A stretch of DNA of 57,765 nucleotides, taken from an uncultured virus (IMG/VR IMGVR_UViG_3300009151_000002) (Duplodnaviria > Heunggongvirae > Uroviricota > Caudoviricetes). A program made the translations under genes and the position numbers. The stretch lies in the IMG/VR virus record IMGVR_UViG_3300009151_000002. One strand, written 5' to 3'. The notes below the pieces were generated by a model. It searched no databases, was not told the origin of the DNA, and saw only the letters and a program-made list of their open reading frames with translations. Below are positions 16,751 to 55,988 of this stretch, in pieces. Position 1 is the first letter of the stretch; each line of letters starts with the position of its first letter.

Positions 16751-16752
16751 AA

Positions 16753-20840: not shown

Positions 20841-21035
20841 TTATTTATTTGCTGTGTATCTATCAGCACCCCAAACATTTTTGTTTACTGTTGGTGCTGT
20901 AGGAACTATTTGTTTTTTATCTTGTAATCCTTTTTCATAAAAGGCTAAACAACTTGAACAACAAGATGTTCCATTACTTGCTCTTCTCTTTTGACATCCG
21001 CAAGACATTTTTGCATTACAATTACTACAATTCAT
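20841..21035 (-). CDS. Small Cys-rich (metallothionein/Zn-finger-like) protein
   Basis: Start moved to ATG 21035 because it is preceded by the AAACCAACAAAA leader and avoids overlap: MNCSNCNAKMSCGCQ...SCCSSC. Confidence 0.55.
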   Translation of the reverse strand: MNCSNCNAKMSCGCQKRRASNGTSCCSSCLAFYEKGLQDKKQIVPTAPTVNKNVWGADRYTANK

Positions 21036-21054
21036 TTTTGTTGGTTTTAAAGGT

Positions 21055-21624
21055 TTAACAATTATTACATTCAAATTTATTCAAAAGTTTTAATGCATAG
21101 TTATATAAACTCATTCCTTTTTGTGGTTCATGACAAAATTCTACTTTTGACTTAGCAGATTCTAAATACATTTTTATTAATCTAAGTCTTTCTAGTTTTG
21201 TTTTTATCTTAGCTGGAGGATCACAGGCAGCTAAATCAACATTACATAAAACTTTATAATATTTATTTAAGGCTTGAGAAATTCTCAAATAATTATATTC
21301 TACAAATAGTAAATTGTTTGGTGAAACACTGTATCTAATTGCATAAATACCATCTGGTATATTTGCTAGTATAGTATCACAATTTTCTTTTTGTAATCCA
21401 AGATCACATGCTGTTAAATTGATATGCCCACCCTCAACAAAATTTATCATCTTGTCACCAATAATTTCAGTTGAGTAACCAAAACCAGGAACTGTAATTG
21501 TTAGTGTAGGACATATAATAGGAATATTAGGTGATGTAGTTTGATACACACTAGTATCAAAAATTTTCATCACACAGGTATTTAATACCGTAGGTATATC
21601 TAAACTTAATATATGATTTGCCAT
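21055..21624 (-). CDS. Putative tail hub/structural protein
   Basis: 189 aa. IFDTSVY...LTITVPGF...IPDGIYAIRYSVSP pattern seen in crAss-like structural modules. Confidence 0.5.
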   Translation of the reverse strand: MANHILSLDIPTVLNTCVMKIFDTSVYQTTSPNIPIICPTLTITVPGFGYSTEIIGDKMINFVEGGHINLTACDLGLQKENCDTILANIPDGIYAIRYSVSPNNLLFVEYNYLRISQALNKYYKVLCNVDLAACDPPAKIKTKLERLRLIKMYLESAKSKVEFCHEPQKGMSLYNYALKLLNKFECNNC

Positions 21625-21635
21625 AGTTCCTTAAA

Positions 21636-21678
21636 ATAAAAAAAGGAGAGAAGAGTTTGAAACTCTCACTCTCCTTTT
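21636..21678 (-). terminator. Rho-independent terminator
   Basis: AAAAGGAGAG...CTCTCCTTTT long stem followed by a T-run on the minus strand. Confidence 0.8.
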
Positions 21679-21700
21679 AAAGTTATTATTTTTTTTCCTA

Positions 21701-23287
21701 TTAAATTAATGCAGGAATATCTACAACTGGTGTACAGTCTGAACCACATTCAAATGTTTCTAAACCACCACAGTTATTTCCACAAGCGTTTAACCATGTA
21801 TCAACAAATAGTGTGAAAGATTGTCCTTGAGCACCATCAGTTGGAGTTACAGTAGAAGCAACAATAATTTCTAATAAGTATTGATCATTGTCAAAAGTAC
21901 TAGATGCATTATTGAAACGTGGAACATGATGTTGGATATAAAATCTATTGTAAGATGAATTTCTATCAATAACATTCAACATTTGGTTTCCTTGTGTAAT
22001 CTCACGGATACGGAAATCAGAATGGAAGAAGTTTTGTCTGTATCTTTCTGAAAGAATTACATCTCTCAATACAGTTTCACCTAAACCATTTGCTTGTCTT
22101 CCTTGACACTCAGTAACTATACACAATCCTTGAAATTCACATGGATCACCGTTTAAATCAGTTTCAGAAGCATACAATCTTACTGGTTCTTTTTCATAGA
22201 AGTCAGAAACTTGGAATGTACAATCACCAAATTTAGTATCTACATAAGCACCAAATAATGTTATACCTGCATATTGACCAGCACTATGTCCTGGAGATAC
22301 ATAATGATCCCAAGTACCACCAATTGAATAACCAGCTGGAGCAGCTAATACAGAAGTATCAGTTCCTGGTTTGTACCATAATGTATTATTCTCAGCAGTA
22401 ACTACTGGATAAACAAATGGAGAAATCAATGGAGAAGCAACAATTTGTTGAGCCCATTTAATAAATACTTCAGTACTATCTACTGGAGTTGGAACAATAC
22501 TTCCTGTTGGACAACATCCAGTGTAAGCAGTTAATGTCAAGTAAGCATTGTGATTTAAAAATCTTAATGCTGGAGAACCTTTAATATCTAAACGTAAGTT
22601 ATATGTCTCACCACATAAGAAATCTTTTTTACAAGCTTCTTTAGCACCAGCTGTATCAACAGTTAATACAACTTGAGTGATACCACTTCCGTTATCAAGT
22701 AATTGACCAGCAATTGAAGTTAATGAATCACTTGCTGCATAACCTGTACCACCATTAACAATTTCTACTACAGTAGCTTGTCCACCTACAACAGTAACTT
22801 TAGCAATAAATCCAGCACCTGAACCACCTGAGAATTCAACTTCATTATAAACACCATCTACAATGTTGTTACCATTATTACTGATTGTAAGTGTTAACAC
22901 TTGGTCATCAGTAAATGGAGTGTATCCAACGTGAAGGACATTTTGTGAAGCAGGACATGCAGGAGCAAAATAAAATTTGCTTACATATTTTGGGTTGATT
23001 TCTTTAGACTTGTTAGACTCTAAATATCCACCGTGAAAAGGTCCAATTTTATCTTTTGAAAATAAAGAACCTGAAGCCAAAATTAATGGGCAACATCCTG
23101 AACCAGAAAAAGAAGTTGGTTGAACCAACCAAGTTTTAGGATTAACAAAAGCATACTGTCCAGCTGCTAAAATGTTTCCTGTAGTTCCTAATACACCTTG
23201 ATTTAACGCGGTGTAACCTTGTGTACCTGGAGATAAAGCGTTAACTCCAACAAAGGCTTTTTGAAAAGCATGATTAAAATAACTCAT
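21701..23287 (-). CDS. Abundant virion structural protein (possible auxiliary capsid protein)
   Basis: 528 aa with its own promoter box and terminator; position equivalent to the conserved crAss-like structural gene after the ring protein. Function is inferred from synteny. Confidence 0.45.
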   Translation of the reverse strand: MSYFNHAFQKAFVGVNALSPGTQGYTALNQGVLGTTGNILAAGQYAFVNPKTWLVQPTSFSGSGCCPLILASGSLFSKDKIGPFHGGYLESNKSKEINPKYVSKFYFAPACPASQNVLHVGYTPFTDDQVLTLTISNNGNNIVDGVYNEVEFSGGSGAGFIAKVTVVGGQATVVEIVNGGTGYAASDSLTSIAGQLLDNGSGITQVVLTVDTAGAKEACKKDFLCGETYNLRLDIKGSPALRFLNHNAYLTLTAYTGCCPTGSIVPTPVDSTEVFIKWAQQIVASPLISPFVYPVVTAENNTLWYKPGTDTSVLAAPAGYSIGGTWDHYVSPGHSAGQYAGITLFGAYVDTKFGDCTFQVSDFYEKEPVRLYASETDLNGDPCEFQGLCIVTECQGRQANGLGETVLRDVILSERYRQNFFHSDFRIREITQGNQMLNVIDRNSSYNRFYIQHHVPRFNNASSTFDNDQYLLEIIVASTVTPTDGAQGQSFTLFVDTWLNACGNNCGGLETFECGSDCTPVVDIPALI

Positions 23288-23323
23288 TGTTTTTTTGTTT
23301 TAATTAATAAATAACACTAATTA

Positions 23324-23331
23324 TAATATAC
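23324..23331 (-). promoter_or_regulatory. Putative late promoter box (GTATATTA)
   Basis: CTTTTAGTATATTA upstream of ATG 23287. Confidence 0.5.
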
Positions 23332-23354
23332 TAAAAGATTTTATAATATCAAAA

Positions 23355-23807
23355 TTATTTCAAGAAAAGTAATTTATATTTTGCAGAATTCATACTTGAT
23401 TTGACTAAGTCAAGATCATTTACAATTTCTGAGTAAGGCATTTTGTCTTGTAACTTACAAACCATATCACACATATCTTTTAAATAATCAATACCGTCAG
23501 CAACAGTATTTAATTTTCTAGGAGCAACTTCTTCATAAGATAATAATTTTTCACTAGCTCCTTGGAAACCTTCTGCTAAATCATCAGCATGTCCAGGTAA
23601 TGCATCATACAACTCATTAAGAGCTTTGTGAGCAGCAAAAGATCCAGCCCCAGTTACTTTTAAATGTAACTTGTGGAAACTAGTTGCAGCATTCATTAAT
23701 TCACTTACACAAGCTGCAGTAAGGGATTCTACATTACCATTAGCTGGAGCAGTAGCATATTCACTACTTGCTTTAACTGCACCCGGTCTCTTTAACATTC
23801 TTTGCAT
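23355..23807 (-). CDS. Dps/ferritin-like protein
   Basis: HKLHLKVTGAGSFAAHKALNELYD...DDLAE matches the Dps signature H-x-x-H-W-x-V-x-G...H-x-x-x-x-E-x-Y...D-x-x-AE. Confidence 0.75.
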   Translation of the reverse strand: MQRMLKRPGAVKASSEYATAPANGNVESLTAACVSELMNAATSFHKLHLKVTGAGSFAAHKALNELYDALPGHADDLAEGFQGASEKLLSYEEVAPRKLNTVADGIDYLKDMCDMVCKLQDKMPYSEIVNDLDLVKSSMNSAKYKLLFLK

Positions 23808-23812
23808 ATCTA

Positions 23813-24511
23813 TTAGTTATTTCTTTCTGATGCCTGTGAGTTTCTAGAGTATTGATTTGTTGATTCAATATCTCCTGCTATTATAGCTACAGCATCATCA
23901 ATTATTAGTTCTACTATATCATCTTTGAATTCACATAATACATCTGCTGTAGAAGCAACTCCGGTATATGGGTCTGAGCAGTTTAAAAACTGGACCCTTA
24001 CTGGTTGTCTATAGTAAGTTAATGATGCATTAGGAATTTCAAATTTATCATTGGTATATATTTTAACACCATTATCCATTAGAGTAGCAAATGTTTCAGC
24101 CCATTCAAAACTAGGTTCTTTAGCCTTATCTCTTAAAAGTAAACTCAAGTCATCTTCTTCAGCCAAGTATACCACCATCTTTCTCTTATCGCAGCATTCT
24201 TTATTTGCATACACATCTACTCTCTTCCACTGTAAATAATTACCCGGTAAAGATGCTTCATAATATAAATCTCTTTTTCCTAAAGTAAGATTTTCTAATA
24301 CAAGTAATCTTTGAAGATCATCTTTTCTTCTGTTACTAGATTCATCTCCTTCTTTAAAAGCATTAGTACCATGTAGCTGTCTTCTTACCCATTCTACCTG
24401 AGCTTTATTAAATGCCTCAACTATTTGCCAACATTGAATGTTGTCATAGTCTTGAGAATCTAATTTATTCAGCCTTTGTTTTACTTTTATTTCAATAGTG
24501 CTATTTAACAT
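23813..24511 (-). CDS. Tail ring/head-tail connector protein (crAss-like conserved)
   Basis: 232 aa. AFNKAQ.EW...ESS.RRKDDLQRL...LTYYRQP...ELIIDDAV pattern typical of crAss-like ring proteins. Confidence 0.65.
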   Translation of the reverse strand: MLNSTIEIKVKQRLNKLDSQDYDNIQCWQIVEAFNKAQVEWVRRQLHGTNAFKEGDESSNRRKDDLQRLLVLENLTLGKRDLYYEASLPGNYLQWKRVDVYANKECCDKRKMVVYLAEEDDLSLLLRDKAKEPSFEWAETFATLMDNGVKIYTNDKFEIPNASLTYYRQPVRVQFLNCSDPYTGVASTADVLCEFKDDIVELIIDDAVAIIAGDIESTNQYSRNSQASERNN

Positions 24512-24513
24512 TA

Positions 24514-25008
24514 CTAGTCATTTAAAGTTCTTCTTGGGCGGTTAGTATATTTGATTCCTGCAGCTGCGGCAGCTGTACCAACAACTACTGCTTGTTTAAT
24601 TCTTTTTTTCTTTTGAGGTGACATTGGTTTTTTGCCGGAAGTTGTTTTATTTGTTTTTTGTGAATTTAAATCATCCATCAATCTTTTTTCTTCTGATACT
24701 AATTTAGCTTTATCAACTTTAGCTTTATCAGCAACTACTCTTTCAGCAGCTTTAATTTTTTCAGCTTTCATTTCAGATTTGACACCTCTAGCAAAACCTT
24801 TTCCTGCAGCTTTAATACCTTTACCTCCAGCTTTAACAAATGATACAGGACCCTTAATTGCAGGAGCATTTCCAACAGCCTTATAATATGCTTTACCACC
24901 TCTAACAGTTGCTTTACCAGCAACTTTACCAGTTGCTACCATAGCACGAACCATAGGTTTAATCATTTTACCCATCATTGCTTTCGGAAGTTCTTTTTTC
25001 TTTGCCAT
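24514..25008 (-). CDS. Lys/Ala-rich basic protein
   Basis: 164 aa starting MAKKKELPKAMMG; C-terminal hydrophobic stretch AVVVGTAAAAAGI. Confidence 0.6.
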   Translation of the reverse strand: MAKKKELPKAMMGKMIKPMVRAMVATGKVAGKATVRGGKAYYKAVGNAPAIKGPVSFVKAGGKGIKAAGKGFARGVKSEMKAEKIKAAERVVADKAKVDKAKLVSEEKRLMDDLNSQKTNKTTSGKKPMSPQKKKRIKQAVVVGTAAAAAGIKYTNRPRRTLND

Positions 25009-25010
25009 AA

Positions 25011-25361
25011 TTATTTCTTTTTATATATGTCACAAATTAATTTATAATTACATGTAAGTTCTTCACCAACTTTAATATCTTTTAATGCTATACATGTTCC
25101 ATCTTCCATGTCAATACAATTTGGATTATCTGAATGATTCATAAATCTCATATTATCAAAATATGTTTGATATATATCTCCTTGTTTTGAATTATAAAAA
25201 TTAAAAAAATTTATATACCCTTTTGGTATATCAGTTGCTTTAACTTTAATATCAAATTTATTTAATTTAGCAATCACATCATTTTTTGATATTGATTGTA
25301 AAGTAAATAAACCCAAACCATGGATTTCAGATACATCAACTTTTGTATTTATAAGAAGCAT
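25011..25361 (-). CDS. SET-domain protein-lysine methyltransferase
   Basis: 116 aa with all SET motifs: SEIHGLGLF, RFMNHSDNPN, ALKDIKVGEELTCNY. Confidence 0.9.
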   Translation of the reverse strand: MLLINTKVDVSEIHGLGLFTLQSISKNDVIAKLNKFDIKVKATDIPKGYINFFNFYNSKQGDIYQTYFDNMRFMNHSDNPNCIDMEDGTCIALKDIKVGEELTCNYKLICDIYKKK

Positions 25362-25363
25362 AA

Positions 25364-25510
25364 TTATTTCTTTTTTGCCATTGCTTTAAATGTCTTAGCC
25401 AAAGCTTTTCTCTTTGGTGTACAAGTAGGTTTAGACATTGGAGTGCAGTAACCCTTATGTTTAGGGTTAACTGCTTTTTGTATCCAATTTTTATCCTTCT
25501 TCTCAGCCAT
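25364..25510 (-). CDS. Small basic protein (48 aa), not in ORF track
   Basis: MAEKKDKNWIQKAVNPKHKGYCTPMSKPTCTPKRKALAKTFKAMAKKK*; fills the gap with 2-nt spacing to both neighbours. Confidence 0.75.
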   Translation of the reverse strand: MAEKKDKNWIQKAVNPKHKGYCTPMSKPTCTPKRKALAKTFKAMAKKK

Positions 25511-25512
25511 AA

Positions 25513-26232
25513 TTAACAATTATTTTTCTTAACCATTCCTCCTTTTTTAGCAAACATTGGTTTAAACGCTGGTCTAGAAGGTCCTTTCATTGGAACAGGA
25601 CTATCAATCATTTTGTTTTTTAGAGTTGTTGTTTTCTTTGGTGCAACTGTTTTATTAACTATAGGTTTTTTAGGAGCTGTAGTTGTTCCACCTGTTTGCA
25701 TTTTACCTTTACCTTTGTCAATATCTTGTAACATTTTTTTTAGTCTTGCTCTTTCAGCAAGTTTAAATGCATCTGATACATCTGATTTAGTAGCCGCCTT
25801 TCTAAAATCTAATACAGGTTTAGCTGCTTTTTTAACAGTCTTACCAGCATTAGCAACTTTTTTAACTGTGTTACCAGCTTCAAGTGCTTTACCAACAAAT
25901 TTTACAATCTTACCTAATTGAGCTTTTGGTTTAACAACACCACCATTCTTATAATTGATTTTATCAAAATCTACAGGTACTGTGGCAGGTTTTTTAAGTG
26001 TATCAGATGACTTTTTTTTCCACCCTTGTTTTTCCAAATAGTCTCTATCAAATGGTGAAACAGCTGGTTTTTGTTTACTAGTAGTATCACTTTTTACAGG
26101 TGGTATATAACCTGATCCATTCTTTCTTACATACTTCAATGTTTCTTTAGTTGAAGTAGGTTTTTGACCCATTGCTTTCTGCATTGCCTCTGCAGGTCCG
26201 CCTGATTGATATTTTTTCTTTATTGTTGCCAT
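25513..26232 (-). CDS. Lys-rich low-complexity protein with five GG-type motifs
   Basis: 239 aa; YQSGG, YKNGG, AQLG, MQTGG, AKKGG. Confidence 0.65.
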   Translation of the reverse strand: MATIKKKYQSGGPAEAMQKAMGQKPTSTKETLKYVRKNGSGYIPPVKSDTTSKQKPAVSPFDRDYLEKQGWKKKSSDTLKKPATVPVDFDKINYKNGGVVKPKAQLGKIVKFVGKALEAGNTVKKVANAGKTVKKAAKPVLDFRKAATKSDVSDAFKLAERARLKKMLQDIDKGKGKMQTGGTTTAPKKPIVNKTVAPKKTTTLKNKMIDSPVPMKGPSRPAFKPMFAKKGGMVKKNNC

Positions 26233-26251
26233 TGTATTTAGATTTTATAAA

Positions 26252-26590
26252 TTACTTTTTCTTATTCATTTTTGCACCAGCAATTCTATCTGCTGCAGTA
26301 GCTCTAGGGTTTTTATCTATACCAGCTTTAACAGATAGCATACCAAAAGTAGAACCACCTTTTTTAAAGCTTGGTCTTTCAGATACACATCCACCAGTAG
26401 CAGATCTAACTTTACCCGGAGGGCAAGAATGTTTAACAGCAGTTACTTTAGAACCACCTTTTTGCATACTTAAATTTCCTGTAGTACCTGTTTGAGGAAT
26501 ACCAAAGATTCCCATTTTTGCATTACTTCCTCCTATTGTAGCTCCACCAGATTTCATCTTAGCTCCACCACATTTCATACACTTTGCCAT
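26252..26590 (-). CDS. Small basic protein with four GG-type motifs
   Basis: 112 aa; MKCGG, MKSGG, MQKGG, FKKGG. Confidence 0.65.
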   Translation of the reverse strand: MAKCMKCGGAKMKSGGATIGGSNAKMGIFGIPQTGTTGNLSMQKGGSKVTAVKHSCPPGKVRSATGGCVSERPSFKKGGSTFGMLSVKAGIDKNPRATAADRIAGAKMNKKK

Positions 26591-26615
26591 ATTATATAAG
26601 TTTTAACAATATTTA

Positions 26616-26948
26616 CTAATTATTAATCATACTTTTAACTTTACTTCTTGACACTGGTTTTTTAGTAACCTTTTTATTTCCGTTTGTTATTGATATTGCT
26701 GGAAAACTTTGTTTACCTTTTGCATAACCATTAGTATCAACTATTGTAGTTTTATTGTGTAAGTTTAAATTTGAAAATGGTAAACCTCCTTTATTATTAG
26801 TGATTTTTAAACCTTTTTCTTTTTCAACAAGCTTACCACCTTTTATTGGTTTTACTGCTTTATTACCTGTGTATAATGTTTTTGAATCTGTTCTTAATAA
26901 ACTAGATTTTTTATAATCAACTTTACCACCTGTTTGCATTTTTTTCAT
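26616..26948 (-). CDS. Small basic protein with N-terminal MQTGG motif
   Basis: 110 aa starting MKKMQTGG. Confidence 0.6.
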   Translation of the reverse strand: MKKMQTGGKVDYKKSSLLRTDSKTLYTGNKAVKPIKGGKLVEKEKGLKITNNKGGLPFSNLNLHNKTTIVDTNGYAKGKQSFPAISITNGNKKVTKKPVSRSKVKSMINN

Positions 26949-26960
26949 GATATATATGTT

Positions 26961-27533
26961 TTAACAATTCCATTTTCTTAAATATTCTTCTGCTTCAGAA
27001 GACTCTTTATTATAATATAGTAAATAAATCCGTGCAAACTCTAATAGAAATGGATCATCTTTAAAGTGACCTAAACCCATATTACAGTTATTGCAAAGCA
27101 TTCCCCTTACTATATTTGTAGTATGACAGTGATCAACTACAAGTTTTTCTTCAGATCCACATATAATACAACTTTCAGTTTTAATTAATTCTTTTAAATC
27201 TTCATCACTAATCATTGATCTATACTGACCTCTTCTTATTTCACTTCTATAATTTCCTCTACATGTTTTACACCAACTGTCAAAACCATCTAATGTTCTT
27301 TTATGTGCTGTAAAGAATTCATTTGTTCTTGGATTTTCTATGTTACATTTTTTACATGTTTTGTTTTCTGAAAAACCCTTTTCTAATTGTATTTTATTAT
27401 TATACTCTTTTGAACATGAAATACTACAAAAAACAGTATTATTCTTTTTTAAAGTTTTTTCAATATCTGACTTACCTCTTATAAAAAGAGTATTACAATG
27501 TGTACAATTATATTCTATTTTCTTTGATGGCAT
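26961..27533 (-). mobile_element. Free-standing endonuclease VII-like (His-Me) homing endonuclease
   Basis: CIICG...LVVDHCHTTNIVRGMLCNNCNMGLGHFKDD endo VII signature with N-terminal Zn fingers; flanked by 14-bp direct repeats. Confidence 0.8.
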
Positions 27534-27534
27534 A

Positions 27535-27813
27535 TCAACAATTCCATTTTTTCCTTGCTAATCTTAATCTACTATTTGGGTCTTTAGCTGCTTTTGGAAA
27601 ATTAGCCATTTGCCCTGCAGATCTAGCACAAAAACTTTTTCTTCTCTTAGCATCTTTGCTATCTGGATCAAGCTTTGATGGCTTAGTAGTCACAGCTGTC
27701 TTCATATTTCCCCCAGTAGCATTATTGTATTTAGCTACCCCTTTTGCTGTAAGACCTCCAGACTTTGATTTTTCACCCCTAGAAATTGATAGTGACACAC
27801 TTTTCTTGCTCAT
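27535..27813 (-). CDS. Conserved small basic phage protein (DUF6321-like)
   Basis: GGLTAKGVAKYN...KRRKSFCARS.GQ...KDPNSRLRLARKKWNC family pattern. Confidence 0.7.
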   Translation of the reverse strand: MSKKSVSLSISRGEKSKSGGLTAKGVAKYNNATGGNMKTAVTTKPSKLDPDSKDAKRRKSFCARSAGQMANFPKAAKDPNSRLRLARKKWNC

Positions 27814-28507
27814 AATCTTTTAAATATTTAAAATTATATTTATCACTTGTTCTTTTTCCAGTGCAAACCATGCTTATAAATGAATGACTAATGTTATATA
27901 CTTGTTTTGCTTCATTTATACAAGAATAAACAATATTAGTATTTAAATCTATAACTTTTTTTGCAAAACCATTATTACCTAATGTTTGGCTAATACTCAT
28001 TTTTTGTTTTGATAAGTCACTAGTTTTCTTTCCGTAATTCCAATGTCTATCACTTCTTGGTCTATCTGTTCTTTCAGATGCTAACTTACTCATTACTTTT
28101 TTAGTTTCTTCTGAATGTTTTTTTCCTTTTCTTGGGTCTGGATTATTTAATCTATAAAGTCTATTTTTTTCTTTTATTTTTTCAATAGTTGCTATTGTAT
28201 GTTTTACAGAATAGTCACCACCTTTTGTTCTATTATATCCATTTGGAACCATAGAGTTTAGTTCTTGAATAAACTGTACTTCAAATAGTTTTGCATCTTC
28301 TAAAGTTAAATTATCTTTTAGTATTTCAAATTTAAATTTTTCAAACCCATACTTTTTAATAGCCAAACAAAAAACAACTGCTCTGCTTCTCATTCCTTTA
28401 TGTTGCTTAAATCTTCTTTTTACATCAGAAGTAATACCAATATACTTTTTATTATTAATATTATTTGTAAAACAATACATTGAATAAAGTGCAGCTGTCT
28501 TTGCCAT
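27779..28507 (-). mobile_element. GIY-YIG homing endonuclease with NUMOD3/NUMOD1-like DNA-binding repeats
   Basis: SMYCFTNNINNKKYIGIT...R...H...E...GYNRTKGG, then KGKKHSEETKKVMS. Start moved to 28507 (MAKTAA) to avoid overlap with the upstream gene. Confidence 0.85.
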
Positions 28508-28518
28508 AGTTATTAATT

Positions 28519-29466
28519 TTATAAACCTGCTAAAAATTGTGTAGTTAAATCTACCCATCCTCCAACACTATTATATTTTTTAAATGATGTAACATTAATG
28601 TAAGCATTGTATCCATCATCTGTATTAATAAATGTTCCTGAACAATAAAATACATCAATTCCTGTTCCAACATTAGCACCAATTATTCCTGATGCACCTG
28701 TTAAAAAAGCATCTGAAGCTAATCTTATTTTTTCAGTAGCATAATCCATTTGAGCACCATAAGTTGGTATAGCTGCAAGAGCTGCTTTAAATGGAAATAG
28801 TATAGCACATAGAGTATAGTTTTGATAATCATTTGGAAAGTTTGTTACAACTGGAGCAACAGCATTTGCTGCTACCCATGTAATTGCTGTAGCAACTGCA
28901 CCACAAGTATTATCTGTTAAAGATTGTGCTTCACTTTTTCCTCTTCTCCAAATCCTTCCTACATTACCAGATCTTGATATTCCAATATGAGGAGTATTAA
29001 TCATAAATAAAGCACCATCTGTAGTTGTTGTAACATGTGATCCCCAAGCTTGTATACCTAATATACCTGTGTGAGGATAACCAGCTAAACCACCTGCCAT
29101 GAATGCACCTAAAAACTGATTCTGAGATGCAGGAGTCTGACCAATGTTTGAAATATCTGAATAAATAGGACCATCTATATCATCAGAACAAATTGAATCT
29201 GATAAAACTATATTATCTGGAGAGTAACCTTTTTCTTGTATAAAAGATTTAGCATAATCACCAAATCTTTGAACATTAACTGCTCCAGGATAAGTTACTT
29301 TAACTGTAGTATCATAGTCTACAGGGTTAGTTGTGTTTCTTTCAATACCTTCTACAACAGGAAACCAATCTCCTGATACAGGTTTAATACTAGAAAGAAT
29401 TAAAGCACCAGGTACAACAGTATCTGTTTTTGGATTTTTTAATGCATATGGAGTTAATTTTGCCAT
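28519..29466 (-). CDS. LCIB/LCIC-family (beta-type) carbonic anhydrase-like protein with N-terminal extension
   Basis: YPGA, SICSDD, AFMAGGLAGYPHTG..G..A...H, PHIGIS..G.VG...R.G and TCGA match LCIB/C conserved blocks, including the Cys/His/Cys Zn ligands. Confidence 0.8.
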   Translation of the reverse strand: MAKLTPYALKNPKTDTVVPGALILSSIKPVSGDWFPVVEGIERNTTNPVDYDTTVKVTYPGAVNVQRFGDYAKSFIQEKGYSPDNIVLSDSICSDDIDGPIYSDISNIGQTPASQNQFLGAFMAGGLAGYPHTGILGIQAWGSHVTTTTDGALFMINTPHIGISRSGNVGRIWRRGKSEAQSLTDNTCGAVATAITWVAANAVAPVVTNFPNDYQNYTLCAILFPFKAALAAIPTYGAQMDYATEKIRLASDAFLTGASGIIGANVGTGIDVFYCSGTFINTDDGYNAYINVTSFKKYNSVGGWVDLTTQFLAGL

Positions 29467-29468
29467 GA

Positions 29469-29621
29469 CTATTTCTTTTTTGTTGTTGCTTTAATCTTCT
29501 TCTCTTGTTTTAGCATTGCCGCTGTAGGTTTCTTTCCAGAACCTTCATTAGCACGGATGGCATCCCAGAGACCTCTCTGGGAAACACTACCGTCTTTTCT
29601 TTTCAGCATTTGCTTTTTCAT
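29469..29621 (-). CDS. Small basic protein (50 aa), not in ORF track
   Basis: MKKQMLKRKDGSVSQRGLWDAIRANEGSGKKPTAAMLKQEKKIKATTKKK*; ATGA overlap with the upstream stop. Confidence 0.75.
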   Translation of the reverse strand: MKKQMLKRKDGSVSQRGLWDAIRANEGSGKKPTAAMLKQEKKIKATTKKK

Positions 29622-30130
29622 TTCTTTTTAGCTACTATTTTCTTTTTAACTACTCCTCCTTTTTTAAGAATTCTTGGTGGCCCATAAGTTTTTTTAGGTG
29701 CAGATTCCATTTGAGAATTACTAGTATTACCTGTCATACTATCAGCACTTTGAAAACCTGAAGGTTTAGATTGCATAATAGAAGATGGTCTATTAGATGT
29801 ATTATAACTATCTCTATTGTAAGAATCTTTATTATAACTATCTGTAGTATTACCAGCGTTATTACCACTATTGTTCATAACTCTTGCTTTACTTCTACCA
29901 GTACCAAGTACTTTAGAAACTCTATTAGCCCTTGAATCTCTTTTTGAAGCAACACTACCTTCACCTTCAATATCTGCTACAGTAGCTTTTCTTTTTGCTC
30001 TAGCTATTTTTCTTTGTTGTCTTTCTTCAAAATTAGGTAGACCCAAAGGTCCACTACCCATTCCAAATTGTGCTTTTGCTAAAGGTTTTTTAGCTGTAGT
30101 AGTTTTCTTGATAGGTTTACTTGTTGCCAT
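29618..30130 (-). CDS. Basic low-complexity protein with AQFG and LKKGG motifs
   Basis: 170 aa with Lys-rich termini and a short DSYN tandem repeat. Confidence 0.65.
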   Translation of the reverse strand: MATSKPIKKTTTAKKPLAKAQFGMGSGPLGLPNFEERQQRKIARAKRKATVADIEGEGSVASKRDSRANRVSKVLGTGRSKARVMNNSGNNAGNTTDSYNKDSYNRDSYNTSNRPSSIMQSKPSGFQSADSMTGNTSNSQMESAPKKTYGPPRILKKGGVVKKKIVAKKK

Positions 30131-30132
30131 GG

Positions 30133-30375
30133 TTATTTTCTTTTTAATGTTCTTACAGGAGGTTTAACTAAAGTTCTAGCTGGAGCTTTACCTGCAGTAA
30201 CAATTCCTCCTAGTGCTTTAATTTGTTCTTGTGCATGCTTTGCAACATGAGCCATCATCTTAGGATCTTTTCTAATCTCATCAGCTCTCTTCAAAGTAGA
30301 TAAGGCAGATTCAATTTCCCATCTGTCCATTTCTTTTTTTGCAGGAGAAGCAATTGGTTTAGTTACTTTAGCCAT
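30133..30375 (-). CDS. Small phage protein
   Basis: 80 aa; WEIESALSTLKRADEIRKDPKMM helical core with basic tails. Confidence 0.65.
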   Translation of the reverse strand: MAKVTKPIASPAKKEMDRWEIESALSTLKRADEIRKDPKMMAHVAKHAQEQIKALGGIVTAGKAPARTLVKPPVRTLKRK

Positions 30376-30377
30376 GA

Positions 30378-30659
30378 CTATTTCTTTTTAAATAAATTTT
30401 TAAAAAAAGATTTAACTTTAGTAGATAATGATACTGACTCAACAACTTTTTCTTCAACTTCTTTAACTAATTCTTCTAAAGATTCTTTGTGTTCAGAAAT
30501 AATTTTAGTTGTTTCATATACAGCATTTTCAACTACAGGTAAAATTTCTTCTACTGTTGCTTCAACTTCTTTAACTACTTTTTTTACAACTTTTTTTCTT
30601 GGAGCTCTTGGAGTCTTTACTTTCTCAACAACAGCTGCTTCTACTTTTTTCTTTGCCAT
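30378..30659 (-). CDS. Small protein with basic termini and Glu/Val-rich core
   Basis: 93 aa, MAKKK...KKK*. Confidence 0.6.
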   Translation of the reverse strand: MAKKKVEAAVVEKVKTPRAPRKKVVKKVVKEVEATVEEILPVVENAVYETTKIISEHKESLEELVKEVEEKVVESVSLSTKVKSFFKNLFKKK

Positions 30660-30662
30660 AAT

Positions 30663-30701
30663 ATTAAAATAAAATTAAGCAGTACCCTATCTAGGTACTG
30701 C
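30663..30701 (-). terminator. Hairpin/possible terminator overlapping the stop of 30687-30863
   Basis: GCAGTACC-7nt-GGTACTGC perfect inverted repeat followed by TTAATTTTATTTT. Confidence 0.55.
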
Positions 30702-30863
30702 AGTTTTAGGAGCTTTAGATGTTCCACCTACTCTTCCTTTTGCTACTTTTTGTACGGTTGCTTTTGGATTAACTCCAGATTTAACACCTTTACTTCCAGC
30801 AACTTTAGAAGCTGTAACTTTTGCATTTGGGTTATTCATTTTCCCAGTTGTGTAATTTGCCAT
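30687..30863 (-). CDS. Small Lys/Ala/Gly-rich protein (58 aa), not in ORF track
   Basis: MANYTTGKMNNPNAKVTASKVAGSKGVKSGVNPKATVQKVAKGRVGGTSKAPKTAVPR*; A-rich leader. Confidence 0.7.
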   Translation of the reverse strand: MANYTTGKMNNPNAKVTASKVAGSKGVKSGVNPKATVQKVAKGRVGGTSKAPKTAVPR

Positions 30864-30875
30864 TTTATTTTATTT

Positions 30876-31892
30876 TTAAGAGTTCCAATATTTTTCACAA
30901 GCCATGTTCAAGTCTTTCAAAATATCCTCATTTAAAGGATTTTTTAAGTGCTCTAATACATCAGAAACATTCCTACCTAACAATGCGTTAGTTTTGGTAT
31001 GATAGATATAACCATCGCCCTTAGTAACAATATACTTAAAAAATACGGAATCTCTAACAATTGATTTAATTTTTAATGTTTCCATATCTAAAGTAGCTAT
31101 ATCCATAAATGTTTTAGCAGCTCTTTCTTTGTTGCTTTCACCACCTAAACCAGAAATGTAGTTATCCATGTTTTCATAGATTACATCATTTGGTGTAGAT
31201 TTTCTATATTGTGTACTGTTGATATCTACAACTTTTGCAATGTAGAATAACTTAGTACTGTTTTTGTCAAATAATTTTTGTAATTCAGATAGAGCTTTGT
31301 TACGTAATTTTTTATACTCTGTTCTTACCATTACAGTTTCCTCTTCTTTATCTAAGTAAAACTTTGGTGGAACAGCTTTTGCTCTTGCATCTTCCAAACT
31401 TTTTGAAACTAATGAGAATCCTCCAGCTTCAATTGCATATAATTTAATTCTGTCATAAGGGTCTTTTGGATCTAAGAACGTAGGTTCATTACCGCAAGAA
31501 ATAAAAATTCTATTCCAGAATTCAGAATTGTTTGGTCTTAGTAAAGTAACTTTAGCCCAAAATTCTTTATCATCAACATCAATAACATTAGCTGCTAGTT
31601 CTTGTTCTAACTCTGCAACTGCTGCTCTGATCTCTCTTACTCTAGCTTCTTTCTCTGCTGTAGGAAGTAATTTGATTTCCGGAGCAAACTCATTTAATCC
31701 AGTTACATATCTTACTACACCATTGTTATCTAAACAAGCTAGTTGTTCATTATGTGTTACCCCATCAAATAAACTCATACCATAGTCTTCTAATCCCATG
31801 TTAGAAGCAGAGTTATCAAAGTAAGGTCTTACAGCAATAGCTGTTTTTTTAACTGAGCCTTTTCCGGTCTCAACCATTGTGAAATTTTCCAT
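30876..31892 (-). CDS. Conserved crAss-like protein following the major capsid gene
   Basis: 338 aa. NSEFW...FLDPKDPYDRIKL...KFYL pattern; conserved post-MCP position. Confidence 0.6.
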   Translation of the reverse strand: MENFTMVETGKGSVKKTAIAVRPYFDNSASNMGLEDYGMSLFDGVTHNEQLACLDNNGVVRYVTGLNEFAPEIKLLPTAEKEARVREIRAAVAELEQELAANVIDVDDKEFWAKVTLLRPNNSEFWNRIFISCGNEPTFLDPKDPYDRIKLYAIEAGGFSLVSKSLEDARAKAVPPKFYLDKEEETVMVRTEYKKLRNKALSELQKLFDKNSTKLFYIAKVVDINSTQYRKSTPNDVIYENMDNYISGLGGESNKERAAKTFMDIATLDMETLKIKSIVRDSVFFKYIVTKGDGYIYHTKTNALLGRNVSDVLEHLKNPLNEDILKDLNMACEKYWNS

Positions 31893-31925
31893 TGTTTTGT
31901 TGGTTTTTGTTTTTGTAAAATTAAT

Positions 31926-31964
31926 TAAAAAAAATAGGTAGAGGAAATTAATCCCCTACCTATT
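31926..31964 (-). terminator. Rho-independent terminator after the capsid gene
   Basis: AATAGGTAGGGG...CCTCTACCTATT stem plus a long T-run. Confidence 0.8.
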
Positions 31965-31974
31965 CTAGGTATTA

Positions 31975-33594
31975 TTAGAAGGATCCGCCAGTGATTGGAT
32001 TTCTCATAACAATTTTCAATACTTTAGTTGGATCTTTAACCCAAATAGCTGGCATTGTTTGAGACATCATTACACGGTATCCATTGAATTGACCTGAAGA
32101 TTGGAACCCTTGAGTTCTACCCATGTAATCCATAGTACCATTTTGATACCACCATTTCAATTGATTATCCCAAGATAATTTCAATAAGAAGATGTTATCA
32201 TTAGTATTATCAGTGATATCAAAGATAATGAATGAATAAGAAGATAATGGGAAACCATCAATGATTGGGTTTTCAATATCATTTGTGTGAACATTATCAA
32301 ATGCTGGATTCAATACAAATTTCACGTTAGCCAAGAATGGGATAACATATGAAGTGTATGCAAATCCAAAGTTTAAGTCCATACCTTTACCAGTGATTGC
32401 ACCGATATCAGCAGCTTGGATTAATAAACCTGAAGATACTGCTTCACGTTTGATAGCCTCATTTACCATTCTCATACCACCCATACCAGTTTGTACAACT
32501 AGAGAGCGTTTTGGATCTGGACCTTGGAATTCAACTTTACCATTGAAGAAGTTGTAGATCTCACCACGGAATAAATCCAATGTGAAGTTATTCTTGTTGT
32601 AGATTCTTTTGAAAGAGTTATCCAACTGTTTCCAAAGACCCACTGACAATCTTAAATCATCTGGACCATCTTGTTTGATTCTACCACCTTGTCCCCACAT
32701 TAAGTAAGTCTCAATATCTTGAGCTATCTTAGACAAGTGAGCCGCTTCCATAGTAGTTAAGAAAGTTCTAGATAAATCTCCATTGTCAAAAGCTTTTTTA
32801 ACTTTGTCTTTACCTAATGTCTTAACCATATCATCTAAGCTACTGATTGAAGGATCATTTAAGTTTGTATCAAATGTTCTCCAGATCTCAGTTACAGGAA
32901 CTGTACCATCTGCATTCATACCACCTTTGATCATCAAATCTGCTCTAGAAGAAATAGAGTAGTGAACGTGAGCTTCTGCACCTCCTACAAAGTTGTAGAA
33001 TTCACGGAAACCAGCTCTAGTTTGGATGTCAGAGAATCTCTCTCCATACTCACCACGCGCAGAACCTTTACGGAATACTTTAGTACCATTAGATAAGTAC
33101 TTGTTATCCAAGAACTTGAAGTTATCATTGTTTACTAACTGTACGGTATAGATAAATCCATCACCTACAGGTAAGATATCTTCAGCTGTTACATAAAGTT
33201 CAACACCGTTGTATTTGTCATAGGTGAACATATCACCATGTCCAAACTCACGTCTGTTTAATTTAATTCTGAATGTTGATCCCTCAATTCCTTTGAACTC
33301 ATTATCCGGTTCAATGTCTTCAATAATGTAAGGAAGATCAATAGATACAGGAGTCTGCCATCTATATTCACCTCTTGCATTGTCTACCATAATTACATTC
33401 TTTCCACCGAAAGAAGACATTTGGTACAAAGGCATTTCAACTTTTTGGGACATAGCCCATAAGTCAACCGGACCTAAATCCATTGGTTGAGCATCTTTCA
33501 ACATGTTTACTAAGTGGTAGGAATCTACGTGTGAACTTGCATTGTATGCAGTATCACGCAGAAATATACCATTGTTTAAAACTGGAGTTGCCAT
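31975..33594 (-). CDS. Major capsid protein (HK97 fold, crAss-like)
   Basis: 539 aa; portal-scaffold-MCP synteny; GLWKQL, VQTGMGGM and MPAIWVKDPTK motifs resemble crAss-like MCPs; C-ending codon bias of a highly expressed gene; followed by a terminator. Confidence 0.85.
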   Translation of the reverse strand: MATPVLNNGIFLRDTAYNASSHVDSYHLVNMLKDAQPMDLGPVDLWAMSQKVEMPLYQMSSFGGKNVIMVDNARGEYRWQTPVSIDLPYIIEDIEPDNEFKGIEGSTFRIKLNRREFGHGDMFTYDKYNGVELYVTAEDILPVGDGFIYTVQLVNNDNFKFLDNKYLSNGTKVFRKGSARGEYGERFSDIQTRAGFREFYNFVGGAEAHVHYSISSRADLMIKGGMNADGTVPVTEIWRTFDTNLNDPSISSLDDMVKTLGKDKVKKAFDNGDLSRTFLTTMEAAHLSKIAQDIETYLMWGQGGRIKQDGPDDLRLSVGLWKQLDNSFKRIYNKNNFTLDLFRGEIYNFFNGKVEFQGPDPKRSLVVQTGMGGMRMVNEAIKREAVSSGLLIQAADIGAITGKGMDLNFGFAYTSYVIPFLANVKFVLNPAFDNVHTNDIENPIIDGFPLSSYSFIIFDITDNTNDNIFLLKLSWDNQLKWWYQNGTMDYMGRTQGFQSSGQFNGYRVMMSQTMPAIWVKDPTKVLKIVMRNPITGGSF

Positions 33595-33618
33595 TTATAT
33601 TTATTTATTAGTTACTAA

Positions 33619-34890
33619 TTAAAAAGTACGTCTGAAAATATTAGTATTCTGACGCTGTATTGTTTTTTGTGGTTTGCTAGAAGGTCTATCTTCTCCTAAA
33701 CCGGTATTAGTTGAAGAACTAGATAATTTTCTAGACTCTTCAGTTTTTAAGCTTCTTACTGTTTTTTCTACAGCAGCCTTAGAACCTTGTTCTTTTATTC
33801 TACTTCTGTATCCTTCTGGATCTTGAAGTAACCAAAGTGCTTCAGCAATTAAACCATGATTTGGTTCAACAAACTGATACTTTTCTAACAAGTGTCCTAA
33901 CAAGTTTGTATTCTTACCAGATATAGAAGGGTAGTTTGGTTGTACTAATCCTGAGTAAAGAACACTTTGTGTTTTTTTATCAAGTTTAACTCCCGCAATT
34001 TCTCCTGCTGCAAGTGTATTGTATACACTATCTGTATAAGCTCTTGCTTGTTTTGTTTGTTGTTCTTTTTTATGTTCTTGCTCTGCTAATTGTCTTGCAA
34101 CAATTTCTTCTTGCATTCTGTCTAACTTAGGTTTAAACTGATTAGCTTTTTGTTCAAGCTTATTCATGTCTGCCCAGTCTTGAATCTCTGATTCAATTTC
34201 TTCAGCATTTCCAAAGTTAGTAGCCCAAAGATATTGTCTAGCAATTTCTTCTTGGTCATGTTCATTAGTAGGATCTAAATCAATGATCTCTTCTACATGA
34301 GCAAGAGTTCTGAAAAGACCTTTTAAATCTTGTCCACCATCAGCTACATACTTAGCCGCAATTTGAAGTTCTTCAGGAAGAGCATTAAAAAATTCTTTAG
34401 GAACTTTTGCTTTTACAGCATTTTCTCTTTCTTGGAAGTTTGCTTCAAACAATTCTCTGAAGTCTTTAGTACTATACTCTTCTAATGATTTTTCATCATC
34501 AAAAGGAATAAGTGTACCTTCCTCAATCATCTTTTGAGCTAGATCATAAAGACCATCTTTATCTACTTTTGGTCTTCCATTCTTAGTACTAGCTTCTTCA
34601 TTCTGACTAATAAGATTATCTAACTCAGCAATAGTTTCTTCAACTTCTGCTTTGTCTTCTACAGCTTGAGCTTTTTCTTGAGCTGTTGTAGGTTTATTGT
34701 CAAGGAACGAGGTGTCAATGTTTTCAGCACTGAACATAGTTTTTGGTTTTTCCTCTGCTTTACCATCTTCTGGTGTCATGATGTTTGCAGCTCCTGGATT
34801 ACCAAATAGTTCATCAATGTTAACATCAACTTGTTCTACCGTTGTAGAGTCTTGAATTTGATCTTCAAGATTAGTTGCTTCTTTATTCAT
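33619..34890 (-). CDS. Putative scaffold/prohead core protein
   Basis: 423 aa acidic, helical/coiled-coil, between portal and MCP. Confidence 0.6.
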   Translation of the reverse strand: MNKEATNLEDQIQDSTTVEQVDVNIDELFGNPGAANIMTPEDGKAEEKPKTMFSAENIDTSFLDNKPTTAQEKAQAVEDKAEVEETIAELDNLISQNEEASTKNGRPKVDKDGLYDLAQKMIEEGTLIPFDDEKSLEEYSTKDFRELFEANFQERENAVKAKVPKEFFNALPEELQIAAKYVADGGQDLKGLFRTLAHVEEIIDLDPTNEHDQEEIARQYLWATNFGNAEEIESEIQDWADMNKLEQKANQFKPKLDRMQEEIVARQLAEQEHKKEQQTKQARAYTDSVYNTLAAGEIAGVKLDKKTQSVLYSGLVQPNYPSISGKNTNLLGHLLEKYQFVEPNHGLIAEALWLLQDPEGYRSRIKEQGSKAAVEKTVRSLKTEESRKLSSSSTNTGLGEDRPSSKPQKTIQRQNTNIFRRTF

Positions 34891-34913
34891 CTTGTTGGTT
34901 TTAGTTTATAATT

Positions 34914-34921
34914 TAATATAA
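34914..34921 (-). promoter_or_regulatory. Putative late promoter box (TTATATTA)
   Basis: Upstream of the scaffold gene, followed by the AAACCAACAA leader. Confidence 0.45.
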
Positions 34922-34980
34922 GCAATAAACTTGAAAAATTTAAACACTCTTAAAAATTTTTGGGCACTATATAGCTAACC

Positions 34981-37712: not shown

Positions 37713-38504
37713 CTATATTAATTTAAATACTGTTTTATTTTTTGTAACTCCGTTAAGTTGTCTATTCAAAGTAGAATTATTAAATCCATATTTTTTACAT
37801 ACATCAGATATTGAACTGAAAATTTCTTTTGTTTCCAAGTTAATAACTTTTTTTTGAACAAATGAATAATCTTTATTTATGTTTATAAGAGACTTATCTG
37901 ATAAGTCATAAACTATTTTATTTTTTAATTCTTCAATTTCTTGTTTGCTAATTATATTTCCAAACTTTAAATAATAATCATTTATAGATTTGCTTACAAC
38001 ACAAGCTCTTCTTACTCTTGATGAACTAGTATTTAAAAATAAAGCTGCTTCTACCAATGTATTAAACTTATATATAATATACGTTTTTAAATTGATAAGT
38101 ACAACCTTTCTACTGTTCCTATTAACAAATACACCACCTTTTCTACAATGAGGCTTATCTTTAAATCTACTTTTTGCAGCAGTTGATATTTTTAATTTTG
38201 TTTCTGGAGAATGTTTTAAATTTAATATACCTTCACCACCATCTGTTAAATTGCATAATGTACCTGCGTATATATCAGATCTTCCATATTGTTCAATATA
38301 CTGTTTTTCTTTTTGACAAGCTTCTTCCCATGTAATATCAGAATGTAATATTTCAACTAAAAATTCAGTATTGTTTTTGTGTACAATATTTTTCCAATAC
38401 TTATTACGACTACATCTTGCATAGGCTCTATTTAAAGTTTTACCAATACCTATATAAAATACATCTTGAGTATCAATTCTTATATGTTTATATACACAGG
38501 CCAT
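37713..38504 (-). mobile_element. Free-standing GIY-YIG homing endonuclease between terminase and portal
   Basis: CVYKHIRIDTQDVFYIGIG...RA...E...LCNLTDGGEG, plus KHSPETKLKIS (NUMOD3) and NUMOD1-like C-terminal repeats. Confidence 0.85.
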
Positions 38505-54777: not shown

Positions 54778-54984
54778 TTAATTAATCATCATGTTAGAAA
54801 TAACACCTAGAAGAAATGATATAAAACACATTATAATTATTGCTAAGTTAGCTTTAGTTACTTTCTCGGTATCTTCTTGCCACATGTTATATACTTTATT
54901 GTATATAGGCATACGCCAAGAATTTTGTAATCCATACAGTATATATATAATAATTACACCAATAAGTAAACAAACAATAATCAT
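54778..54984 (-). CDS. Small two-TM membrane protein
   Basis: 68 aa with two hydrophobic segments; ATGA-coupled to the upstream gene. Confidence 0.55.
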   Translation of the reverse strand: MIIVCLLIGVIIIYILYGLQNSWRMPIYNKVYNMWQEDTEKVTKANLAIIIMCFISFLLGVISNMMIN

Positions 54985-55358: not shown

Positions 55359-55359
55359 C

Positions 55360-55635: not shown

Positions 55636-55647
55636 CTTTTCTTTTAT

Positions 55648-55983: not shown

Positions 55984-55988
55984 GTTTT

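Follow-up and report, generated by a model that had tools for sequence, protein, structure and literature searches.

Among protein-modifying enzymes delivered with the virion, the ADP-ribosyltransferase Alt of T4 is the classic example; together with the T4 internal proteins IPI-III, it represents a system of small basic proteins from a hypervariable locus among head genes that have a short peptide in common with a larger packaged enzyme. To our knowledge, protein-lysine methylation is not an established bacteriophage weapon. The chlorovirus enzyme vSET (A612L) is a minimal SET domain of ~120 aa without pre- or post-SET parts, which functions as a homodimer and acts on histone H3 (H3K27) of the host chromatin; PBCV-1 "encodes and packages" this enzyme (PMC7019647). 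The paper on polyvalent proteins, which are giant multi-module effectors in a packaging or late-gene context, counts T4 Alt and IPI among early-phase effectors (PMC5512222). The phage crAss001 is described as storing and ejecting the cargo proteins gp45 and gp46, which are encoded after the muzzle gene gp44 (PMC10172136). Here, we describe a locus that can be compared with all of these systems, in a stretch of 57,765 nucleotides (nt) from an uncultured virus (IMG/VR record IMGVR_UViG_3300009151_000002; the whole stretch is hereafter called the window). In this locus, SET116, a free-standing, predicted minimal SET-domain protein-lysine methyltransferase of 116 amino acids (aa), is encoded at 25011–25361 among 11 small Lys-rich basic proteins (24514–30863; hereafter the island) downstream of the capsid gene.

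All genes of the window are on the (−) strand, to which every window coordinate given here refers. We propose, with moderate confidence, that the island encodes packaged polycationic cargo and that SET116 is an optional effector module, possibly a delivered one. Specifically, the SET enzyme is more likely an optional delivered effector than the fixed writer of a "phage chromatin" envisaged by the initial annotation, and a packaged, DNA-associated role is the most plausible reading for the basic proteins. The new point is the presence of a SET module on a protein in cargo position, which was found mainly in relatives and not in the window itself.

The system is a variation on known kinds, namely variable internal-protein loci, polyvalent or cargo proteins, and packaged viral SET enzymes. 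Like the T4 locus, it is hypervariable, lies among head genes and encodes small basic proteins; it differs from T4 in that the Gly-Gly (GG) junction motif of its proteins is not N-terminal only and also occurs at internal module joints, and in that the enzyme is a methyltransferase instead of an ADP-ribosyltransferase. Structurally, the free SET protein and the fused SET module described below both match vSET best, and where PBCV-1 packages its enzyme in the virion (PMC7019647), phage relatives place SET on a cargo-position protein; the differences are a bacterial host, presumably without histone H3, an identity of 22–28% and an enzyme that is optional. The giant proteins of the lineage resemble polyvalent proteins (PMC5512222) and share with crAss001 gp45 (PMC10172136) the gene position just after the muzzle gene, but no MPTase or other peptidase, a releasing domain that is common though not universal in polyvalent proteins, was detected in them by Pfam, and the SET protein of the window is free-standing. 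The free mini-SET proteins of other phages form a family that is 41–64% identical and is an optional cargo gene in unrelated phages, whereas here the gene is part of an island of polycations, in a lineage that employs SET as a cargo module as well. In literature searches, no publication dealt with DUF6321 (a family represented in the island), with such polycation islands or with SET enzymes in the virions or cargo of phages, and "SET domain" was absent from the main text of PMC5512222 in a term search of that text. A "SET domain" match in the crAss001 paper proved to be "C2-set domains" and was discarded.

SET116 and the SET modules of cargo-position proteins

SET116 matches the Pfam SET profile (PF00856) with an E-value of 2.1e-13 (51 bits against a cut-off of 22.4; profile positions 1–105) and consists of a single domain (residues 15–107) with no pre- or post-SET parts. 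An alignment of 14 SET homologs at 41–95% identity shows no variation at G15/G17, N75-H76-S77 or E101-L102-T103-C104-x-Y106; we take these to be the S-adenosylmethionine (SAM)-binding GxG, the NHS and the ELxx(x)Y motifs, the latter with the catalytic Tyr. In a PDB sequence search, the motifs align with RFINHSCEPNC and GEELTYDY of KMT2A/B. The AlphaFold2 model of the protein (mean predicted local distance difference test [pLDDT] 86.5; predicted template-modeling score [pTM] 0.76; last 7 residues disordered) has 321 PDB matches at an E-value of ≤0.001, with those listed being SET-domain proteins, vSET and MLL1 first, and its best match is vSET (3kma_A; template-modeling [TM] score 0.68/0.74). 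Together, the motifs and the predicted fold suggest that SET116 is a catalytically intact, vSET-like minimal lysine methyltransferase, which bears out the initial annotation of a minimal SET protein at this position.

At the position of the crAss001 cargo gene gp45, the window encodes a giant protein of 1458 aa (2387–6763), which follows the crAss_MUZ match at 6763–12318, and then a second cargo-position giant protein, of which the N-terminal 776 aa are present (1–2328) before the gene runs off the window. Both carry the GG motif. By Pfam, the 1458-aa protein of the window contains no SET domain; among relatives, however, Pfam SET matches lie inside giant open reading frames (ORFs) in 6 of 31 records, with one further free SET (in relative G005). 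A scan by the muzzle gene covered the best 80 of 385 related loci (L205–L284), 76 of which have a readable post-muzzle ORF. A custom hidden Markov model (HMM) identified a SET module in 22 of these 76 ORFs within their first 832 aa or fewer, mostly 0–84 residues from the ORF start and twice near residue 470–490. Among 57 non-redundant post-muzzle ORFs, 15 pass Pfam SET at an E-value of ≤1e-4 and 2 have a phage lysozyme domain. In every locus retrieved by a search with the fused module (21/21), the ORF starts where the muzzle homolog ends.

The fused module (~85–105 aa) keeps GxG..GLF, NH(S/N/H) and E..(I/L)...Y and lacks ~24 residues of insert, and it aligns to the free SET family with an hhalign probability of 99.3%. 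Its predicted structure (pLDDT 87.9) again has vSET as the best PDB match (TM score 0.66/0.64). The module is bounded by ..KKGG, being followed by ..DF-KKGG, a conserved linker and ..YYxDGG, and in one architecture it is parted from an N-terminal "module A" by ELKKGG. The post-muzzle protein of the window starts with the shared leader and module A, after which come MKKGG and no SET. A complete post-muzzle protein of 1446 aa in relative G004 (L174, 4251–8591), encoded directly after the muzzle gene, combines an N-terminal SET (2.3e-8) with a C-terminal ART-PolyVal domain (6.6e-13), a domain that takes its name from the polyvalent proteins described by Iyer et al. 2017; like polyvalent proteins, it thus contains several unrelated effector domains. 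SET activity has been repeatedly recruited as an effector module in this lineage, and independently at least three times: as the free type of the window, as the G005 type and as the fused type.

As for the start of the giant protein itself, its first 92 aa (6487–6763) represent the commonest post-muzzle start among L205–L284. They comprise a leader, MYNKK.L...L.KAKAP, and a module A of ~65 aa (DPxGQWxxPGxxTRIPxxxITMxGVxYPV...YVDEYP), which Pfam does not recognize and which extends to a ..KKGG joint.

The free SET gene is sparsely distributed. None of the 40 IMG/VR relatives that span the island has a SET gene in it (0/40), and a metagenome scan with the SET sequence found two loci only. In the first, contig L182, a 95% identical, intact SET again follows b51, at the site known from the window, in an island that is far shorter and has no b164; the second, L183, is 37% identical. 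A search of a large protein database returned 10 SET relatives at 41–95% identity, and 80 other viral contigs with mini-SET homologs were found with the family alignment. In these contigs, the gene lies, for example, after DNA polymerase A, between ribonucleotide reductase subunits, between terminase and portal, between a Mu-type portal and MuF, between crAss ring-protein genes beside a GIY-YIG gene, or among tail-fiber genes. There is no basic Lys-rich neighbor within 3 kb in 68 of the 80 contigs, as compared with 5 such neighbors in the window, and no DUF6321 neighbor in any (0/80). These varied contexts, together with the general lack of basic or DUF6321 neighbors, mark the free mini-SET as a roaming accessory gene. 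A survey of gene neighborhoods of this kind had been suggested in the initial annotation as a check on its model, and the varied placement of SET in other phages is largely the outcome named there as speaking against it.

Relative G005 (L173, 7143–9820) encodes a different free SET of 126 aa, 30% identical to SET116, at another genome position. It is part of a second accessory island that also contains a b112-like gene, a signal-peptide protein, DUF6321, an AlkB-like 2-oxoglutarate (2OG)-Fe(II) oxygenase (7.9e-12) and a 46-aa Lys-rich ORF, and that lies upstream of homologs of the window genes at 54981–56264.

The polycation island, its cassettes and its junction motif

The island lies between two conserved genes: g338 on the capsid side (30876–31892; 68–95% identity in relatives), at the position of crAss001 gp33, and g232 at the other border (23813–24511), a conserved virion structural protein (PHROG 29507, 3.3e-12) that, judging by gene order, appears to correspond to the crAss001 ring-protein genes gp34/35. 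In a capsid-based scan (best 80 of >600 related IMG/VR stretches, ≥90% capsid identity), 40 of the 80 relatives span g338 to g232. In all 40, the interval measures 1.5–4.9 kb and is packed with co-oriented small ORFs, and 271 of its 279 distinct ORF products have an isoelectric point (pI) above 9. Since the g338 and g232 counterparts are adjacent in Leptolyngbya phage Lbo-JY46, and gp33 is directly followed by gp34 in crAss001, the island is specific to the lineage. Clustering of the products revealed a backbone of b58-type, 112-aa-family, b80, DUF6321 and b112/b51-type proteins, accompanied by many singletons; SET of the window is a singleton as well.

In the window, the 11 island proteins (b58, b93, b80, b170, b50, b92, b110, b112, b239, b51 and b164) have a pI of 9.5–11.4 and contain 14–27% Lys, as compared with a pI of 4–9 for most other window proteins; the cluster of about 11 small basic proteins first noted around SET downstream of the capsid gene is, thus, confirmed. 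On the capsid side, the first island gene, b58 (30687–30863; pI 11.4; homologs in 33 of the 40 relatives), is followed by b93 (30378–30659; rich in Lys/Glu/Val, pI 9.5; 3/40), b80 (30133–30375; family F2; 20/40), the cassette gene b170 (29618–30130; product ending in ..ILKKGGVVKKKIVAKKK; 0/40 and absent in the nearest relative) and b50 (29469–29621; 26% Lys; 8/40). Beyond two non-basic genes lies b92 (27535–27813; Pfam DUF6321, 3e-17; 35/40), the most conserved island family, with 33 invariant columns in 17 sequences. The remaining members are b110 (26616–26948; start MKKMQTGG; 2/40), the Gly/Lys-rich b112 (26252–26590; CxxC...C..C, 6 GG sites, family F0; 31/40), b239 (25513–26232; 4 GG junction motifs), b51 (25364–25507; 47 aa from ATG, 27% Lys; 31/40), which directly precedes SET in both SET-bearing strains, and b164 (24514–25008; pI 10.7, 20% Lys; 2/40). 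b239, a cassette absent in the nearest relative L007, is predicted to be disordered (ESM Atlas model, pLDDT 0.46, pTM 0.14), and an ESM Atlas search with it returned unnamed viral clusters only, below 0.9. Three ORFs of <60 aa that the ORF track had missed are real genes, to judge by their recurrence in relatives (b58, b51 and b50, as above), and b51 shows a clear third-position excess of codon differences (163/126/525 at positions 1/2/3), as does b92.

No histone fold, HU/IHF fold or H1 globular domain was detected in the 11 proteins by Pfam, PHROG or NCBIfam, and the NCBIfam scan gave nothing meaningful. We also considered whether the 11 proteins are mutual paralogs; this was rejected, as window-internal BLASTP gave no pair below an E-value of 0.2, and families appear only across genomes. 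DUF6321 is common among aquatic phages, with relatives in 183 phage records of many morphotypes and at varied genome positions; in Pelagibacter phage HTVC023P, the gene lies three genes downstream of the capsid gene. Contigs from RNA library X21 cover parts of b164, b93, b58, g338 and the LCIB-like gene; such contigs are no evidence of expression, as RNA libraries can hold DNA and contigs do not demonstrate transcription. Within b170, three tandem 15-nt units (29800–29859; direct-repeat family D4) code for DSYN(K/R) repeats.

Four non-basic genes interrupt the island, SET being one of them. The others encode an LCIB-like acidic protein on an accessory cassette (28519–29466; Pfam LCIB_C_CA PF18599, 9e-27), a GIY-YIG/NUMOD3 homing endonuclease (27779–28507, with an internal ATG as start; Pfam GIY-YIG 4.6e-11 and NUMOD3 2e-8; PHROG 1e-38) and, after b92, an Endonuclease VII (EndoVII)-type homing endonuclease (26961–27533; Pfam Endonuclease_7 1.6e-14; PHROG endonuclease VII 3.3e-28). 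The LCIB-like gene, found in 1 of the 40 spanning relatives and in L065, has copies in L045 and L065 at 83–84% identity; its family (limiting-CO2-inducible B/C) belongs to the beta-carbonic anhydrases.

The SET gene is a 353-nt cassette bracketed by two exact 17-nt repeats (AAAAAGAAATAATTATG), the upstream copy covering the end of b51 and the start of SET (25359–25375) and the downstream copy, of the same sequence, the end of SET and the start of b164 (25006–25022). The repeat has 4 matches in the window at ≤2 mismatches, compared with 0.26 expected, and none of 100 shuffles reached 4. L007, which has ~90% nucleotide identity to the window in the flanks, contains a single copy where the window has two copies and SET. 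Relative to L007, the window has b170, the LCIB-like and GIY-YIG genes, the EndoVII gene, b239 and SET as extras, each a discrete insertion at a gene boundary. In addition, the 3′ end of the EndoVII gene repeats that of b92 (..KWNC*). The gene boundaries share the junction sequence ...AAAAAGAAATA(A/G)nnATGGC..., which explains the recurrent MAK starts and KKK ends that had been noticed at the outset and that proved to be real.

Contigs from three lake DNA runs of three studies (X3, X4 and X6) join position 25022 to 25359, i.e., form the SET-less junction, and lake-contig joints skip exactly 25023–25358 (SET), 25528–26255 (b239) and 26983–27621 (EndoVII). With a likeness of 85% and sides of 27–68 letters, these joints represent related strains and only agree with the L007 comparison. 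SET is optional and probably entered the island as one more cassette by recombination at a conserved junction; that it adjoins the basic proteins reflects their common location among cassettes and no fixed pairing of writer and substrate.

GG dipeptides recur in these proteins. Among 271 island proteins from 41 genomes, GG occurs 638 times compared with 324 expected from composition. In 611 sites, the −3 residue is Met in 29% (also Tyr, Ala or Phe), the −2 residue is Lys in 47% or Gln in 10%, and the −1 residue is Lys, Thr or Ala. The motif can be written as hydrophobic-(K/Q/R)-x-G-G (pattern [MYFAWLI][KQR]xGG), and its occurrence was compared with composition-preserving shuffles (n = 1000). 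It occurs 10 times in the 11 island proteins versus 0.64 in shuffles (~15-fold; 0/1000 reach 10), 10 times in the two post-muzzle giant proteins versus 0.77 (0/1000 reach the observed number), where it sits at module joints, and twice in the 43 other window proteins versus 2.9. Since the pattern was derived from the island, only the result for the cargo proteins is an independent test. The KxGG tags of the initial annotation are, therefore, real and exist at the protein level, and the motif may be a joint used for loading or cutting.

Two other explanations of the motif were rejected. The 313 motifs in 130 of the 271 island proteins are spread along their length, with only a mild enrichment in the first 30 aa, which argues against a purely N- or C-terminal tag. 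The Gly codons of the motif are GGT/GGA in the usual Gly proportions of these genes, which argues against KKGG being a nucleotide artefact of a Shine-Dalgarno sequence (AAAGGAGG).

Genomic setting of the island

The window represents the virion module of an uncultured crAss-like phage from fresh water. Assignment to the crAss-like lineage is based on Pfam matches to Crass_capsid, crAss_MUZ and Ring_1/2 and on PHROG matches for portal and terminase. Specifically, the module comprises the terminase (38504–40711; PHROG 1.5e-56), the portal (34981–37710; PHROG 3.3e-95), the Crassvirus major capsid protein upstream of the island (31975–33594; PF23898, 1.3e-28), ring protein 2 (13372–14043; Pfam CrAss_Ring_2 1.2e-19), ring protein 1 (12320–13372; Pfam CrAss_Ring_1 1.1e-7) and the muzzle protein (6763–12318; Pfam crAss_MUZ 3.3e-30). 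The best capsid match among deposited phages is Lbo-JY46 at 28% identity, so there is no close deposited phage, and a DNA similarity search against deposited phages gave just two short matches, both inside the DUF6321 gene. Sampled words of 24300–26300 were found in freshwater and lake metagenome runs. Overlap of the window with the nearest virus record, G001, covers the tail and cargo part (L205) and does not extend to 21000–35000; the record is, therefore, uninformative on the island.

Several further genes of the module were noted. A second GIY-YIG gene (37713–38504) lies between terminase and portal, giving three free-standing homing endonuclease genes in the virion module. Adjoining g232 in most relatives is a DUF5856 gene (23355–23807), whose product has Dps-like and "starvation-inducible regulator" PHROG matches (phrog_858, 1e-18) and is a possible DNA-binding ferritin-like protein in a structural operon. 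Two tail-region proteins (15386–17301) show weak SprB-repeat matches (21.5–22.3 bits; cut-off 28), which are compatible with a Bacteroidota host and are no evidence for one by themselves. The product of 55648–55983 might be a candidate anti-CBASS/Thoeris sponge, given its weak match to the Acb2/Tad1 hairpin domain (E-value 8.4e-4; 19.9 bits versus a cut-off of 27).

Role of the basic proteins and of the SET enzyme

If the island indeed encodes packaged cargo, the lineage would maintain a hyperplastic island in which single-gene cassettes are shuffled and encode small Lys/Gly-rich polycations of largely disordered structure. These proteins would be loaded into the virion by the cargo route, marked by the common motif. 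There, they would be internal, DNA-associated and probably co-ejected, like the products of the T4 variable internal-protein locus. A SET gene would join the island by recombination at the gene-junction sequence, and the enzyme would methylate a target, most likely a host protein, that it encounters upon or after delivery, by analogy with the virion-packaged chlorovirus vSET or the injected T4 Alt. Host targets had been offered in the initial annotation as an alternative, with ribosomal proteins or HU as examples; the notion of a host target fits better than that of methylated neighbors, because 22 of the 76 relatives place a SET module on a cargo-position protein.

Several observations weigh against packaging and delivery. 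Packaging, ejection and target are what we infer here, packaging from gene position and the shared motif. SET116 has no GG motif anywhere; if the motif is a loading tag, SET116 is untagged, and its site of action may be the cytoplasm at the late stage of infection at which its Lys-rich neighbors are produced. The motif pattern, built on the island, was slightly widened after the cargo proteins had been seen. No T4-type arrangement of an N-terminal targeting peptide and a prohead protease was found: the motif is spread along the proteins, and the candidate GG-cutting families PF02902 (Peptidase_C48) and PF04586 (Peptidase_S78) were each absent from five relatives' records (0/5), other families not having been searched. 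Furthermore, Pfam revealed no peptidase among the window proteins or in the giant proteins of relatives (2 complete and 57 partial), most of whose length has no Pfam match. Given its spread across phages and its varied positions, DUF6321 is not evidently a head protein. The free SET of G005 also lies near b112-like and DUF6321 genes; SET is, therefore, found beside these basic families twice in the lineage (window/L182 and G005), which could reflect a functional link. Finally, the relatives were chosen by similarity and include many near-identical strains, so that their counts do not represent independent events.

Such a link is central to the model of the initial annotation, in which SET methylates the neighboring Lys-rich, DNA-condensing proteins, perhaps at the Lys of K-x-G-G, to form a phage chromatin with its own writer. 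In its favor, two strains have SET within the island, each time immediately behind b51, and the gene is co-oriented and tightly spaced with its neighbors in a late operon; the different free SET of G005 is close to a b112-like gene, DUF6321 and a 46-aa Lys-rich gene; and the fused SET modules are directly followed by ..KKGG and Lys-rich linkers. However, the island lacks SET in 40 of 40 spanning relatives, repeats bracket the gene as a cassette, which some lake contigs contain and others do not, and 68 of 80 mini-SET contigs have no basic neighbors, with no DUF6321 matches in the set, so that a coupled chromatin system of SET and the basic proteins is not supported. Moreover, 54 of the 76 post-muzzle ORFs lack SET within their first 832 aa or fewer, and the basic proteins, therefore, do not need a SET enzyme. 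We consider this model unlikely. A variant, to which we give slightly less credence still, is that the SET domains of the lineage, free in the window and fused to cargo in relatives, methylate the phage's own GG-jointed Lys-rich cargo, e.g., at the Lys of hydrophobic-K-x-G-G, tuning cutting, DNA binding or ejection.

The island proteins might instead be late cytoplasmic polycations, such as nucleic-acid chaperones, host-nucleoid disruptors or anti-defense proteins, with the motif otherwise used and SET an unrelated accessory. The occurrence of DUF6321 in 183 phage records of many morphotypes and positions, the absence of any protease or capsid-targeting signal known for the lineage and the presence of the motif beyond protein termini would all suit such a role, and hypervariability fits any arms race. 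We nevertheless regard it as improbable, though not negligible, because the motif is elsewhere enriched only in the post-muzzle cargo-position proteins, the island sits amid the virion-gene operon in every relative, and the DUF6321 gene of HTVC023P is three genes downstream of the capsid gene. Least probable, in our estimate, is that SET is a passenger without a role, carried by recombination or by homing-endonuclease-driven gene conversion in a hyperplastic region. The two homing endonucleases in the island, the patchy distribution of SET and the location of its homologs in typical endonuclease insertion sites, e.g., between crAss ring-protein genes beside GIY-YIG, are what a passenger would predict, but its catalytic motifs are invariant in 14 homologs at 41–95% identity, the L182 copy is intact at 95% identity, and the lineage has recruited SET independently at least three times (free, G005 and fused).

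Under the reading of packaged cargo with an optional, possibly delivered SET effector, this abundant lake crAss-like lineage, with SET modules on its post-muzzle proteins and a free SET cassette beside putative internal proteins, provides a concrete case for a methyltransferase delivered by a bacterial virus, which would parallel the packaged chlorovirus vSET in prokaryotes. In crAss001, the post-muzzle position at which relatives encode their SET modules is that of a cargo protein presumed to be the first to exit the virion. If SET were instead to methylate the phage's own cargo, bacteriophage particles would contain a true "chromatin mark", with a writer and its substrate. The island and its junction motif may define how proteins are loaded or processed in the capsid, a question that, for unresolved cargo, was left open by the crAss001 structure.

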